A DNA stretch of 58,389 nucleotides, from the NCBI GenBank assembly GCA_963788395.1, contig CAWBGV010000022.1, forward strand, positions 1 through 58,389, given 5' to 3'. A model generated the notes under the pieces. The model ran no database searches. It was not told the origin of the DNA and saw nothing but the letters and a program-made list of their open reading frames with translations. Positions 10,623 to 22,403 of the stretch are shown here, one piece after another. The DNA is from Candidatus Doudnabacteria bacterium (GTDB lineage Bacteria > Patescibacteriota > Doudnabacteria > UBA920). A program made the position numbers and the translations under genes. The stretch's first letter is position 1. Each line of letters starts with the position of its first letter.

Positions 10623-10916
10623 AAATTTTCCCTAAAGGAAAATTGGCAAACCAACTGCTAGTAATAACTAAGCTGTTCCTTGCGGGGCCCCCGATCCGCC
10701 CGAGACGGATTGGGGAAAGGGGCAACAATCCGAACGTAATGGAGTCGCGTCCGACGCGGACGGAATGGAGTGAGGATTGATTATTTCCTTTTCAGGGCCC
10801 CCAATTTTCCATCCCTAGAAAAAAATCATAGGGAAAATTGGGGAAAGGGGCAACAATCCGAACGTAATGGAGTCGCGTCCGACGCGGACGGAATGGAGTG
10901 AGGATTGATTGACCCG
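10623..10916 (-). repeat. modular palindromic element directly 3' of tRNA-Ser(TGA), containing a perfect 74-bp direct repeat (10709-10782, 10837-10910)
   Basis: Direct comparison of the sequence; homologous to 22238-22403. Confidence 0.9.
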
Positions 10917-11009
10917 TGGCGGAGAGGGAGGGATTCGAACCCTCGGTTCGCCTCATCGGCGAACAACAGTTTTCAAGACTGTCCGATTAAACCACTCTCG
11001 CACCTCTCC
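10917..11009 (-). tRNA. tRNA-Ser (anticodon TGA)
   Basis: GGAGAGG/CCTCTCC acceptor, G-CCA end, ACAGT-CT TGA AA-ACTGT anticodon arm, long variable arm. Confidence 0.95.
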
Positions 11010-11101
11010 AGGATCATTTGCGGTTTTTCCGCCTCCGCTGCTAAAAAATTAAATGATAGCTACGGCGGATCCGCCTATAAGTTATTTTATTTTGAGGCGG
11101 A

Positions 11102-11137
11102 CAAGACCAGCGCACTAGACCACTATGCGACCTCTCC
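11102..11137 (-). pseudogene. 5' half remnant of a tRNA-Ser gene
   Basis: GGAGAGGTCGCATAGTGGTCTAGTGCGCTGGTCTTG closely matches the 5' half of tRNA-Ser(GCT) at 22494 and stops inside the anticodon loop. Confidence 0.75.
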
Positions 11138-11206
11138 AAAAACCTTGTCAGTTTTTCCGCCTCCGCTCACTTTGATTTTAAAAGAGGGTCCCGCCCTATA
11201 GAATTT

Positions 11207-11235
11207 ATTATACCATTTCTTTTTAAAATATACAA
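11207..11235 (-). promoter_or_regulatory. sigma70-type promoter for the tRNA-Ser locus
   Basis: TTGTAT-17 nt-TATAAT on the minus strand upstream of the tRNA fragment and tRNA. Confidence 0.6.
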
Positions 11236-11266
11236 AAACGACCCCGCTCTAGAAAGGGTCGTTTTT
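11234..11266. terminator. bidirectional-type hairpin terminator downstream of the sigma/DUF5667 operon
   Basis: AAAAACGACCC...GGGTCGTTTTT. Confidence 0.6.
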
Positions 11267-11373
11267 GAATTGTTACATTCCGCCTTGACTGATTTTTGTT
11301 TCATCTTAACCGACTGTGGCGGATCCGTTACCTTACTGGCAACGGACAGGAATAATATCCTGAGTTTAGGTTG

Positions 11374-11466
11374 TTCACGGATCACGGATACCAAAGATTG
11401 CACGGATAGGGTACAGTCTATCTGGTTTATCCAATCCGTGTATCCGTGTAATCCGTGATCCGTGAA
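11374..11466. repeat. CACGGAT/ATCCGTG heptamer repeats arranged as an inverted array
   Basis: TTCACGGATCACGGAT..CACGGAT ... ATCCGTGTATCCGTGTAATCCGTGATCCGTGAA. Confidence 0.8.
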
Positions 11467-11484
11467 TAACCTAGTCTCAAAATA

Positions 11485-19971: not shown

Positions 19972-20012
19972 AATTTAAAATCTAAATTGCAAATTGAAAA
20001 ATATTAGTTTTT

Positions 20013-21263
20013 TTAATCTTCATTTAAGAATGAAGTCGGAGACGAACTGGGGGAGATTGACGGTGTTGGCTGGTACAAATTCGGCAGTTGATTGTTATAG
20101 AGCGCCATTCCGAACCAAGCCCAGTTGTCGTCGTAGTAACTCATTGCCTGTTTCCATGATTCTGTATCCGGGCTAAACAATGTTTCCAGTTTATTTTTAT
20201 AAACGTTGGCGGCCTGGCTGGAGTCGGCATCAATAAAGTATCCGATCGTGCCGCCATACATGGCCGGCGCTTCCAGATCAGAAACAACGCTGCCATCATG
20301 GCCATAGGTCACGTCTAATTTTTGGTTAGCTTGCCACTGCTGGCCCAAAAAACCCATATCATCCAATAATTGAAGATCTTGTGAATCATGATTCCAGGCG
20401 TAGTCGAGGGCCAGACGGAAGGGAACGCGGAGAGCGTCGTATCCAAAATCGGTGGTGGTGGAAGCGTTGGATGAATTAGGGGCTTCCAACTGCCCGGTTT
20501 GGCGGTCGAGAGCCACCCAATCCGGCGGGATATTAGCGCTGGTAGTTTTATCGAGCGGGTAGGCCATGCTTTGCTGAATAATACTGTAGGAGCTTTGCAC
20601 CAGCGCGTTCCAGTCGTGGGCGGAGTCAACTTGGGCGAAAATTCGGTAACTGTAGGGAGCTAAATAGGAGGGGTCGATTAAAACCGTTGTCGATGAATTT
20701 TTTTCCAGATTATCGGCCACCAAATAGGGGACGTTGTTGACGGCCACAACTTCGTCAGCCCAAATATCACTTATAATATTTTTGGCCGCCGCCGCGTAAC
20801 TGGGGTCTTGCCAGCGGCTGGAGGCAAACAACAAAGCCAGGGCGATATCGCTATCGGCATCGGCCGCGGAATTTTGGCCGTTTTGGTCGGTTAAAATACC
20901 GGTAGTGCCATCGCTCCGGGTGCCATAGAGCCAGGCGAATAAGTGGTCGTTGGTATGCTGGAGATTGGCCTGAGTCCAGCTCCAGGTTTTATCGAACGTC
21001 GGCTTATCATTTTCCCAGACGGCCCGCAGCATGGTATAGCTCTGGCCTTCTGAGGTGGTAATATTGTTGCTCTGTTTGTCTATGGTTCGGCCGGTAGTGG
21101 CATCCCAGTAGACGTTTTTGTACACGCCCCACAGCGCCTGGAGCATAAATGGGGGAGAAAATATTACGGGTTGCTCGCTCTTTTTGCTGTTGCGATAGGC
21201 TACTGAGGCAAAAATTACAATGGCCAACAAAATCAGAAAAGCGCCAAATATTTTTATTTTCAT
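20013..21263 (-). CDS. glycoside hydrolase family 8 endoglucanase (BcsZ-like), N-terminally anchored
   Basis: TTSEGQSY, AADADSDIA, DPSYLAP and YDALRVPFR motifs. Confidence 0.92.
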   Translation of the reverse strand: MKIKIFGAFLILLAIVIFASVAYRNSKKSEQPVIFSPPFMLQALWGVYKNVYWDATTGRTIDKQSNNITTSEGQSYTMLRAVWENDKPTFDKTWSWTQANLQHTNDHLFAWLYGTRSDGTTGILTDQNGQNSAADADSDIALALLFASSRWQDPSYAAAAKNIISDIWADEVVAVNNVPYLVADNLEKNSSTTVLIDPSYLAPYSYRIFAQVDSAHDWNALVQSSYSIIQQSMAYPLDKTTSANIPPDWVALDRQTGQLEAPNSSNASTTTDFGYDALRVPFRLALDYAWNHDSQDLQLLDDMGFLGQQWQANQKLDVTYGHDGSVVSDLEAPAMYGGTIGYFIDADSSQAANVYKNKLETLFSPDTESWKQAMSYYDDNWAWFGMALYNNQLPNLYQPTPSISPSSSPTSFLNED

Positions 21264-21277
21264 GAACGCTTTGGCGG

Positions 21278-22074
21278 TTAATTTTCAAATGAGTATGCTC
21301 TCGATTCGGAAGTGGTACGGTTTTTGCGCAAGAGGTTTTTTACCCGCTTGTAGTTGTAGAGAAGCAGGCCGCTGAGGAGCAAAAGGAAAGCCAAAAGATT
21401 AAGCTCCAGCGTAGCGAGAGGGCTCAAAAAATTGTTTACGTAGGGGGAATAAGTCAGGAGCGGTTCCCATAAGCTCAAGAGCGGTACAAAAACATTTTGT
21501 GTTGCGGCCGAGACGACTGTTTGGGTAACAGTTTTGGGCAGGGAAAAATTAAAGGCCAGTTGGGCGTTTTTAGGAGTGGTCCGGGCGGGAGTGATGGGCA
21601 CGGAAGGGACAGATTCCACGGTGGGGCCGGAGTCGGCATGGGTGGGTCTGCGGCTACAACAGAAGTATTAGGGTCACTGAGCAAGCTTTGGGTGGTAATG
21701 ATTTGGGGCATGCTTAATCCGGTCGGAGTGGGCGTAGGGTTTACTGCGGCTTGAGCCGTAGAATCCGGTGTTTGGTCTTGGGAAGTCTGGGTAGCTCCCG
21801 AATCTGAACCCGCGGGCTGGCTGGCTCCGGTGATAGTTAGGGTGGTAGATGTAGCTGGCAGCGTAGTTAATTGAGCCGGCACGGCGCTGATATCGGCGAC
21901 TGTAATGGCATTTTTCTCGGTTTGAGCGGCGCTATAATTGTGCGAGCTTTTTTTAGGTTGCTCATACTTTGGGTTCTTGGTTTTGGCCAAGACTGGGGAG
22001 CTCATACAAAAAAGCGCCAGGCATATTCCGGTTACAATAATCTGAGAAAATCTTTTGTATTTAAGAGTACGCAT
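21278..22074 (-). CDS. hypothetical secreted/membrane protein with S/T/P/Q-rich region and C-terminal TM; probably one frameshifted gene
   Basis: Fragments 21475-22074 (signal-peptide-like start) and 21278-21619 (TM then basic tail). Confidence 0.55.
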
Positions 22075-22100
22075 AGATTTTTAAAGGCAAGGAACCTGAA

Positions 22101-22130
22101 ACCATACTGTTCATGCTAATTGACGTCAAT
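22101..22130 (-). promoter_or_regulatory. sigma70 promoter of the cellulose-synthase-like operon with a 12-bp palindrome over the -35 box
   Basis: TTGACG-17 nt-TATGGT; ATTGACGTCAAT perfect palindrome at 22119-22130. Confidence 0.55.
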
Positions 22131-22169
22131 AAATCACCCTACTTACAACTTTTGCCCGTTTCTAAGCAT

Positions 22170-22206
22170 AAAAAAACCCGCTTGCGGACGAGCCGCAAGC
22201 GGGTTT
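22170..22206 (-). terminator. strong rho-independent terminator downstream of tRNA-Ser(GCT) and its 3' element
   Basis: AAACCCGCTTGCGG-loop-CCGCAAGCGGGTTT, U7 on the minus strand. Confidence 0.85.
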
Positions 22207-22237
22207 GTTACAAAGAATATTTATAATCTATTTCCCC

Positions 22238-22403
22238 AAATTTTCCCAGAGGGAAAATTCGTAAACCAAGTACTAGTAATAACTAAGTTGTTGCCAATTG
22301 GGGTCCCCGAGCCGCCCGAGGCGGATTAGGGAAAGGGGCAACAATCCGAACGAAGCGGAGTCCGCCCGAGGCGGATGAAGCGCAGTGAGGATTGATTGAC
22401 CCG
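22238..22403 (-). repeat. second copy of the tRNA-Ser 3'-associated palindromic element
   Basis: Aligns end to end with 10623-10782 and shares the GACCCG junction at the CCA end. Confidence 0.9.

Follow-up and report, generated by a model that had tools for sequence, protein, structure and literature searches.

A modular two-hairpin element that begins directly past the CCA end of many tRNA genes in Doudnabacteria

In Escherichia coli, the tyrT trailer contains 178-bp tandem repeats that are transcribed together with the tRNA and set free by processing as RtT RNA (RF00391); part of the tRNA 3' end belongs to the repeats, which are confined to one locus rather than dispersed to many tRNAs. Theta ribozymes lie beside phage tRNAs and cleave within +/-1 nt of the tRNA 3' end; the tRNAs associated with them mostly lack an encoded CCA, and 4.5% have one (PMC10879173). 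Here we describe a short element in a 58,389-nt contig of a Candidatus Doudnabacteria bacterium (assembly GCA_963788395.1, contig CAWBGV010000022.1), the whole of which we call the window. In this contig, tRNA-Ser(TGA) and tRNA-Ser(GCT) both close in an encoded CCA and continue without a gap, read on the minus strand in the tRNA sense, into a common scaffold, CGGGTCAATCAATCCTCAC...CGTTCGGATTGTTGCCCCTTTCCC...GGGG.CCCC...CTTAGTTATTACTAG...AATTTTCC/GGAAAATT. The preliminary description of this DNA had noticed the shared scaffold, and its position straight after CCA is borne out. The elements at the two loci match at E=3e-40, a similarity far beyond chance. We put at roughly one in two (0.5) the probability that these trailers are copies of a non-autonomous, non-coding, selfish DNA element that inserts at the CCA ends of tRNA genes and is carried in their trailers. 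The element is real, multi-copy and structured, and it is undescribed as far as Rfam and the literature show; a full-text literature search found no description of the family, which is absence of evidence and not proof of novelty.

A unit of about 120 nt consists of a long hairpin (rod module A), a second hairpin (hairpin 2) and a tail, GGGGNCCCC-GAWGGGAACA; a long form of about 170 nt adds a terminal module B. As in the tyrT trailer, units can be repeated in tandem behind a tRNA, but internal units contain neither tRNA sequence nor the 5' CGGGTC, and RtT does not match. A search of both loci against Rfam with cmscan returned only tRNAs at the gathering score and nothing plausible over the element at E<=10, which rules out a known RNA family and confirms what had been noticed by eye. 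Like theta ribozymes, the element is structured, has the tRNA 3' end as its 5' edge and is associated with many different tRNAs, but it lacks a hepatitis delta virus (HDV)-like double pseudoknot and is chromosomal in Patescibacteria instead of residing in gut phages. Palindrome-associated elements (PATEs, derived from IS200/IS605) and REP/REPIN sequences, which Y1 HUH transposases (RAYTs) mobilize, share with it a small, non-coding, multi-copy nature, the lack of terminal inverted repeats and of a clear target duplication, subterminal hairpins with conserved pairing, and strand- and orientation-specific insertion by a short fixed word, here ..CCA. The PATE-like layout extends to a left end formed by rod A, a right end formed by hairpin 2 or by the hairpin of module B, and placement on one strand 3' of CCA. 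However, we found no cognate TnpA with the same ends, no autonomous copy and no co-occurrence with Y1, and the Y1 (RAYT) co-occurrence and flanking by repeats expected of REP/REPIN systems are likewise absent. Moreover, the hairpins are much longer than REPs and do not alternate in orientation as in BIMEs, and a 3-nt word alone cannot explain the near-exclusive location at tRNA ends.

The element also resembles the modular, hairpin-forming intergenic repeats that occur inside transcripts, namely pneumococcal BOX (boxA-boxB(n)-boxC), ERIC and Neisseria Correia elements, and the variable number of internal BOX modules has its counterpart in the A-hairpin units that precede module B. By contrast, the sequences are unrelated, those families are scattered intergenically with none tied to the base past a tRNA CCA, and Correia elements possess inverted repeats as well as a TA duplication. 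Bacterial class C group II introns and the insertion sequences that enter hairpins (terminators, REPs, attC) recognize a shape, a stem plus a short single-stranded word, and insert in fixed orientation just past it; in contrast to these, the element measures only 120-170 nt and has no intron domains and no open reading frame (ORF), and its target would be the acceptor/T-arm fold of a tRNA rather than a terminator. The integron attC boxes RYYYAAC ... GTTRRRY were not seen on either strand, where the outer stem reads GGGTCAA ... TTGCCCC (GGGGCAA ... TTGACCC), by inspection only and with no search for an integron integrase. The element shares with miniature inverted-repeat transposable elements its small size, non-coding nature, many dispersed copies and presence/absence variation, but the left end, CGGGTCAATC, is not matched in inverted form by either right end, ..GGGAACAAT or ..GGGAAAATTTG. 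An inverted copy occurs only at tRNA-fMet loci, where it is distant and includes the tRNA end. Most loci show no target-site duplication; many units end in ..CCCCA, which can be read as a repeat of CCA, but inconsistently.

Copies in the assembly that contains the window (41 contigs, 1.29 Mb, only about 77% complete) were located by BLAST with the GCT-locus element and compared with tRNA calls made by ARAGORN. The query gave 54 matches, and about 40 copies of the 77-nt rod module A and 8 copies of module B were found at 21 loci. Eighteen of these loci begin on the first base past the CCA of 18 different tRNAs, all in the orientation of the tRNA and often as tandem arrays. Seventeen lie at detected tRNAs (Ser, Pro and Leu, three each; Val, two; Thr, Tyr, Phe, Cys and Ile), and the 18th follows without a gap the CCA of tRNA-fMet, which ARAGORN misses because a group I intron lies within the gene. 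This intron (Rfam RF00028, 61.9 bits; L006:1222-1432, within a tRNA-fMet gene at C20:~69217-69495) has counterparts in several relatives. Specificity for tRNA-Ser is thereby ruled out: the miniature, modular element suspected in the preliminary description, which is also multi-copy, is supported, but the target is the CCA end of tRNA genes generally. CCA is encoded by all 41 tRNA genes detected in this genome, with or without the element behind them; it is therefore not supplied by the element.

The arrays contain up to five units, for example in the spacer from tRNA-Phe to tRNA-Gly, and the element also lies between the co-oriented tRNA-Cys and tRNA-Leu. Those behind Ser-TGA, Ser-CGA, Pro-CGG and Leu-GAG are 99-100% identical over at least 122 nt. 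Homology stops sharply at ..GGGAAAATTTG or ..GGGAACAAT, beyond which the flanks are unrelated, and the 3' extent varies while the 5' end is fixed. Near-identical arrays with sharp ends in unrelated flanks imply a dispersed discrete unit rather than a segmental duplication. Together, the elements make up about 5 kb of the 1.3-Mb genome and occur in roughly half of its tRNA transcription units.

A census with a covariance model over 95 genomes (28 genera) of the same GTDB family found the element in 34 genomes and 14 genera, with 0-33 copies per genome and a range of 0-28 inside one genus; outside the family, there were only isolated matches in two other families of the order. Among 104 copies in relatives, 54 start 0-6 nt, and mostly 0 nt, past a tRNA detected by ARAGORN, and ~19 more follow the CCA of intron-containing tRNAs, tRNA 3' halves or non-tRNA CCACCA sites, or are the second unit of a tandem behind GGGAACCA. 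About 70% of the relatives' copies thus follow CCA or CCA plus at most 3 nt, and Arg, Lys, Gly, Ala and Met are added to the host tRNAs. One arrangement in genome G073 (L053:1300-1500) comprises a normal tRNA-Val(CAC) and then, in tandem, two tRNA 3' halves that consist of T arm, acceptor strand and CCA and lack any 5' half, with the element behind the last.

Occupancy of orthologous sites differs. In the window, Ser-TGA is filled and the adjacent Arg-CCG is empty, and the sister genome G001 shows the reverse, with the element at Arg-CCG forming a clean 122-nt block from CCA to the next start codon. For tRNA-Ser(GCT), the downstream protein as a query for orthologous empty sites found no relatives, and the tRNA itself was then used. 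In 23 relatives, a terminator lies directly past the CCA of this gene in roughly half (about ten clear cases); only G000, G001 and G007 carry the element there, and G014 has an unrelated rod. At tRNA-Leu(TAG), species of one genus (g3) carry different, mutually unrelated two-hairpin families at the same +1 position, at least three in all. Several unrelated families at a CCA-abutting site fit a general insertion hotspot.

About a quarter of the relatives' copies are away from tRNAs. In three independent cases, the element adjoins a sequence complementary to the ribosome-binding site of a divergently oriented gene (..CTCCTTTCTG|CGGG). At the sites concerned (L087:261-275, L105:217-231, L092:207-221 and L102:215-229), the gap is 0-1 nt, and the antisense strand of the element comes directly upstream of AGGAG-N-ATG; the adjoining sequence is also similar to the 16S rRNA 3' end. 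Since the antisense strand would there lie in the 5' untranslated region of the divergent gene, such copies cannot be sense-transcribed trailers. Upstream of the non-tRNA copies, Rfam detected only nearby tRNAs and two convergent 5S genes and no other stable RNA. Carriage by phages was sought in IMG/VR: six contigs hold one conserved 17-mer and none matches the model, the 17-mer being too unspecific for a census.

An alignment of 16 diverse copies (MAFFT) folded with RNAalifold gave a consensus of two consecutive hairpins. In rod A, the outer stem GGG.CAA/UUG.CCC leads to a hypervariable 6-bp stem (CAAUCC/GGAUUG, CAUUAC/GUAAUG, CAACCC/GGGUUG or CACCCU/AGGGUG), short 2-bp steps and a variable tip hairpin. 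Apparent flanking direct repeats in the rod, ACUCCAUU...ACUCCAUU or alternatively GCGCUUC...CCGCUUC, result from self-complementary dinucleotides paired across the rod, AU/AU switching to GC/GC. Both hairpins are maintained by compensatory changes. In the unfitted MAFFT alignment, 93.6% of cells pair compared to 81.4% after shuffling, double changes occur in 17 of 29 pairs, and the signal collapses once the partner columns are slid. For 109 copies from other genomes, in an alignment that was fitted to the model and hence leans towards the model's structure, the corresponding values are 91.6% and 63.7%, with double changes in all 29 pairs and a covariation score of 0.589 against 0.05-0.10 with slid partner columns. 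Inner hairpins that had been reported as swapped between the two window loci indeed differ and still pair: CGTCCG-CGT-CGGACG at the TGA locus and TCCGCC-TCG-GGCGGA at the GCT locus. With covariation strong in both hairpins, no Rfam family and locations mostly at tRNA ends, none of the outcomes that the preliminary description had named as counting against it was found. The 5' CGGG(U/C)CAA is nearly invariant, and further single-stranded motifs are conserved. A pyrimidine-pyrimidine mismatch in the outer stem is never Watson-Crick and covaries (U.C in 55 copies, C.U in 36, U.U in 5 and C.C in 5); it corresponds to columns 5 and 162 of alignment A2 (window 22399/22339 and 10912/10851) and reads G.A or A.G on the other strand. 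No terminator-like site lies within the element.

Selection on a sense RNA would make G.U wobbles greatly outnumber A.C mismatches. In the rods, well-supported pairs comprise 1896 Watson-Crick, 33 G.U and 37 A.C, and all pairs include 57 G.U versus 89 A.C. By contrast, 152 distinct tRNAs of the same genomes contain 2464 Watson-Crick pairs, 71 G.U and 13 A.C (Fisher p = 7e-12 for all pairs and 9e-7 for well-supported pairs). A preference for wobbles is found on neither strand of the element. This mismatch spectrum is the most discriminating result and, though not proof, points to a hairpin constraint that acts on DNA rather than RNA; its symmetry implies that the hairpins behave like DNA palindromes or very young copies and not like a classic structured RNA.

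Taken together, the patchy distribution, the differing orthologous occupancy, the recent identical copies with sharp ends, the copies away from tRNAs, the symmetric mismatches and the several unrelated families at one site slightly favour a mobile hairpin element. New copies would arise at the DNA level, the first base landing directly past A76 of the encoded CCA in the orientation of the tRNA. The target would be read as a shape, the folded end of the tRNA gene (T arm, acceptor strand and CCA) in single-stranded DNA, and the two hairpins of the element would be recognized by a putative trans-acting enzyme. An element inserted between a tRNA and its terminator, or the next tRNA, would be transcribed in the trailer and lost again from the RNA in the normal course of 3' maturation, so that the site would offer it a refuge. 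Tandem arrays appear to grow through recombination or slippage at the CAAT common to the tail, GGAACAAT, and the next head, GGGTCAATC.

Several findings weigh against mobility of this kind. Y1 transposases (IS200/RAYT, PF01797) occur in 54 of the 95 genomes, 22 of the 34 with the element and 32 of the 61 without it; G022 has 12 copies and no Y1; and the two identical Y1 genes of the window's own genome are not flanked by element motifs. With neither co-occurrence nor flanking, a Y1 enzyme was rejected as the mobilizer. A reverse transcriptase was rejected as well, since the copy-rich genomes G003 (28 copies), G022, G072, G073, G061 and G007 contain no RVT_1. The lack of terminal inverted repeats, of a clear target-site duplication and of an autonomous copy belongs here too. 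No pair of empty and filled sites with alignable flanks was found, and insertion is consequently deduced from distant orthologs. The tRNA-Cys/Leu and Phe/Gly spacers had room, and the junction is still exactly at CCA, so that a very precise mechanism must be assumed. The conserved unpaired motifs UCAC, CGUUC and UUGCCCCUUUCCCCAAA and the covarying U.C / C.U mismatch could equally be features of an RNA. Finally, rods behind tRNA-fMet keep 84-89% Watson-Crick pairing across many genera, also in single-copy genomes and with no excess of G.U, a persistence that looks more like retention for function. The Y1 genes of the own genome, which encode HUH, RAYT-like proteins of ~205 amino acids, are at C25:23469-24081 and C40:4467-5085; the former adjoins an rve-type integrase-like ORF and a tyrosine recombinase ORF, families assigned by reading the translations and not by a profile search.

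tRNA-fMet is the commonest single host and the host in 7 of about 13 single-copy genomes, and its persistence is the best argument for function or domestication at that one locus. At fMet loci, the last 8 nt of the tRNA plus CGG (CGCAACCACGG) recur inverted as CCGTGGTTGCG 130-190 nt downstream (L006, L055, L058, L060, L071, L077, L078, L089, L106 and L112). The complementarity reaches into the head of the element and includes at least one compensatory change; past the inverted copy come a conserved GCGACAA...AAAATCGTGACAG and then a terminator. Where an fMet gene is free of the element, a shorter hairpin of this type, GCAACCAAGCGAG...CTCTTGGTTGC, is present. The idea that module B is a degenerate copy of the anti-acceptor segment downstream of fMet was rejected, as local alignments were no better than shuffles except for a shared CCCCGAWGGGAACAA tail.

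These loci bear on the foremost alternative, a serious one although distinctly less probable than a mobile element, that the trailer is a functional co-transcribed RNA whose +1 rod defines or assists tRNA 3' maturation in a lineage lacking RNase Z. A helix at fixed distance from CCA would be offered to a structure-reading nuclease, for example RNase P or RNase III, freeing tRNA-CCA and a trailer RNA of ~120 nt. A search of 13 genomes of the lineage for RNase Z (TIGR02651) yielded no bona fide match (13 of 14 control genomes matched, 9 of them above the cut-off), although all 41 tRNA genes detected in the window's own genome, which is among the 13 and only about 77% complete, encode CCA. The exact abutment to A76, the constant sense orientation, the order of promoter, tRNA, element and terminator at the GCT locus with placement between co-oriented tRNAs elsewhere, the compensatory changes in both hairpins and the retention behind tRNA-fMet across genera and in single-copy genomes are all as such a role would have them, and by our reckoning the first 12 bp of the rod would equal the length of the stacked acceptor and T stems. 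However, more than half of the own genome's tRNAs, and all tRNAs in 61 of the 95 related genomes, manage without the element, sister genomes differ in which tRNAs carry it, and G.U is not favoured over A.C, contrary to the tRNAs of the same genomes. Some of the copies off tRNAs permit antisense transcription only. Moreover, no in-register NCCA is present on the rod's 3' side, which makes the rod a poor RNase P minihelix mimic.

It is improbable that the element acts in trans as a small RNA, or serves as a DNA site for protein binding or insulation, and that its place in tRNA operons is incidental. Possible protein-binding features are the conserved loops and the palindromic GGGGNCCCC, and a few non-tRNA copies lie just past -10-like boxes, but the promoter enrichment is weak (score of at least 8 in 3 of 22 copies versus 5.4% of control positions), which also makes a weak case for stand-alone promoters before these copies. 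No target complementarity was found, a spread of 0-33 copies among close relatives does not suit such a role, and the exact junction with CCA would be left without explanation. Slightly more doubtful still is spread through RNA, in which trailer RNA would be joined or template-switched onto the 3'-OH of abundant stable RNAs, reverse-transcribed and recombined into the genome. This would fit the junction at the mature 3' end of many different tRNAs, the variable 3' extent with a fixed 5' end, and the three independent non-tRNA copies that abut ..CTCCTTTCT, ..CCTCCTTCG and ..ATCCTTTCT, resembling the own 16S rRNA 3' end, GGATCACCTCCTTTCT. On the other hand, no element is present at the actual end of the 16S rRNA gene, the ..CTCCTTTCT sites are nothing other than ribosome-binding-site complements, and the copy-rich genomes listed above have no RVT_1; because all tRNA genes encode CCA, a sign of post-transcriptionally added CCA cannot be seen. 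The least probable alternative, a ribozyme that frees the tRNA 3' end through self-cleavage at the 5' edge of the element in the manner of theta (minimal HDV-like) ribozymes, would account for the shared position (PMC10879173), the nearly invariant 5' CGGG(U/C)CAA and the other conserved single-stranded motifs, but is opposed by the lack of any HDV-like, hatchet, pistol, twister or hammerhead match (cmscan, both loci, E<=10), by a first base that is C and not G, by tandem units that lack the 5' CGGGTC, by the encoded CCA of all tRNA genes here where theta-linked tRNAs mostly have none, and by the covariation-supported fold, whose two consecutive hairpins rule out an HDV-like/theta topology in that the segment between the outer-stem strands is a closed hairpin and leaves no P2 or P1.1 of a nested double pseudoknot.

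Beyond selfish mobility as such, we tentatively propose, as a broader and rather doubtful extension, a new class of elements in the Doudnabacteria group of Patescibacteria with several two-hairpin families. What they target would be the end of a stable-RNA gene, recognized by its shape, with insertion or copying precisely past A76 of any tRNA-like 3' end by neither a known transposase nor a known reverse transcriptase, and the fMet copy may be a domesticated trailer that acts with the inverted copy of the tRNA end to mature the 3' end in a lineage that lacks RNase Z. Should the element be mobile, its targeting to one base position, in one orientation, at the CCA of any tRNA would be unusually precise for a bacterial repeat and possibly of interest as a site-specific insertion system; as no recognizable enzyme accompanies it, the machinery would be new. 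If the trailer is instead functional, it bears on the 3'-end maturation of CCA-encoding tRNAs in Patescibacteria without RNase Z. In either case, elements of this kind will confuse searches for non-coding RNAs, riboswitches and CRISPR-like repeats in candidate-phyla genomes, and the covariance model allows them to be masked or studied.

The window contains three tRNA genes, all on the minus strand: tRNA-Arg(CCG) at 9950-10024 and the two tRNA-Ser genes; coordinates of the two loci below are on that strand. The preliminary description had listed its finding under positions 10623-22403; the intervening 11 kb contains ordinary host genes (RecG, a GH8 glycosidase and DUF5667 proteins), and there are thus two separate loci rather than one 11.8-kb feature. 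The element contains no ORF, and its neighbours in the window are likewise ordinary host genes.

At the GCT locus, a promoter-like site, TTGACC-17-TAAAAT (22522..22550; 10 of 12 matches, in a consensus scan only), lies 27 nt before tRNA-Ser(GCT) (22404..22494, also given as 22405-22495, with the encoded CCA at 22406-22404; gene call, Rfam and sequence). A single element follows. Rod module A, a long imperfect hairpin by fold and sequence, occupies 22335..22403 from the first base past CCA, with outer stem GGG.CAA/UUG.CCC, next stem CAAUCC/GGAUUG and tip UCCGCC-UCG-GGCGGA; the match to the R1 covariance model spans 22298-22403 (109.7 bits). The G+C-rich hairpin 2, CCCUAAUCCGCC UCG GGCGGCUCGGGG, is at 22305..22331 by sequence and fold. 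Terminal module B, ..CTTAGTTATTACTAG..TTGGTTTAC..AATTTTCCC-TCT-GGGAAAATTTG (22237..22304), was delimited by the homology of 8 module-B copies and closes in the hairpin AATTTTCCC-TCT-GGGAAAATT; the right boundary of the element is past ..AAATTTG, where the homology of the 8 genomic copies stops and the flanks are unrelated. Thirty unrelated bases separate module B from the strong intrinsic terminator that had been reported here (14 pairs and a T run, 22174..22206), which is outside the element. Since a terminator directly follows CCA at the orthologous tRNA-Ser(GCT) of relatives, this one belongs to the host gene and not to the element. The order of promoter, tRNA, element and terminator makes co-transcription of tRNA and element plausible.

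The TGA locus has two units. tRNA-Ser(TGA), including its encoded CCA, is at 10917..11009 (gene call and Rfam). Unit 1 consists of rod module A from the first base past CCA (10847..10916), an A+T-rich hairpin 2, CCCCAAUUUUCCCUA...UAGGGAUGGAAAAUUGGGG (10799..10843), and the tail with the linker GCCCUGAAAAGGAAAU to unit 2 (10783..10798); the R1 model matches 10792-10916 (126.4 bits). In unit 2, rod module A without the leading CGGGTC (10719..10782) is followed by a G+C-rich hairpin 2 (10689..10715) and module B (10622..10688), all assigned from the sequence. The perfect duplication reported for this locus is confirmed as 74 nt at 10709-10782 and 10837-10910, spaced by 128 nt, and the unit 2 rod is part of it. 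No terminator was found downstream of the TGA-locus element; the start codon of the next ORF is at 10591, 31 nt past module B.

Other rods occupy comparable positions. A second, unrelated family at +1 past CCA in the own genome, GCCTYCGTYRGACTACGG...CCGTAGTCCGACGGAGGC, has an 18-bp stem and a unit of ~115 nt and is found at C28:10626 behind tRNA-Arg(CCT), at C28:12957 behind tRNA-Ala(CGC) and at C33:~11265; at tRNA-Ala(CGC), this rod sits between CCA and a copy of the main element. A third rod family follows the CCA of tRNA-Lys(CTT) (C17:4153). The families at tRNA-Leu(TAG) of genus g3 (L187, L192 and L185) include TGTACCA.TCG...CGA.TGGTACA and CGAACCACTC...GAGTGGTG, which the R1 model misses.

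The 34-nt 5' half of a tRNA-Ser gene lies at 11104-11137 (minus strand), 95 nt upstream of tRNA-Ser(TGA). It agrees letter for letter with the beginning of tRNA-Ser(CGA) on contig C28 and breaks off within the anticodon loop. The sequence GCGGAGGCGGA occurs at 11156-11166 and 11028-11038 (minus strand), and the leader word GCGGAGGCGGAAAAAC precedes both the half-gene and the intact tRNA-Ser(TGA). The half-gene could be a recombination relic or part of a split tRNA.

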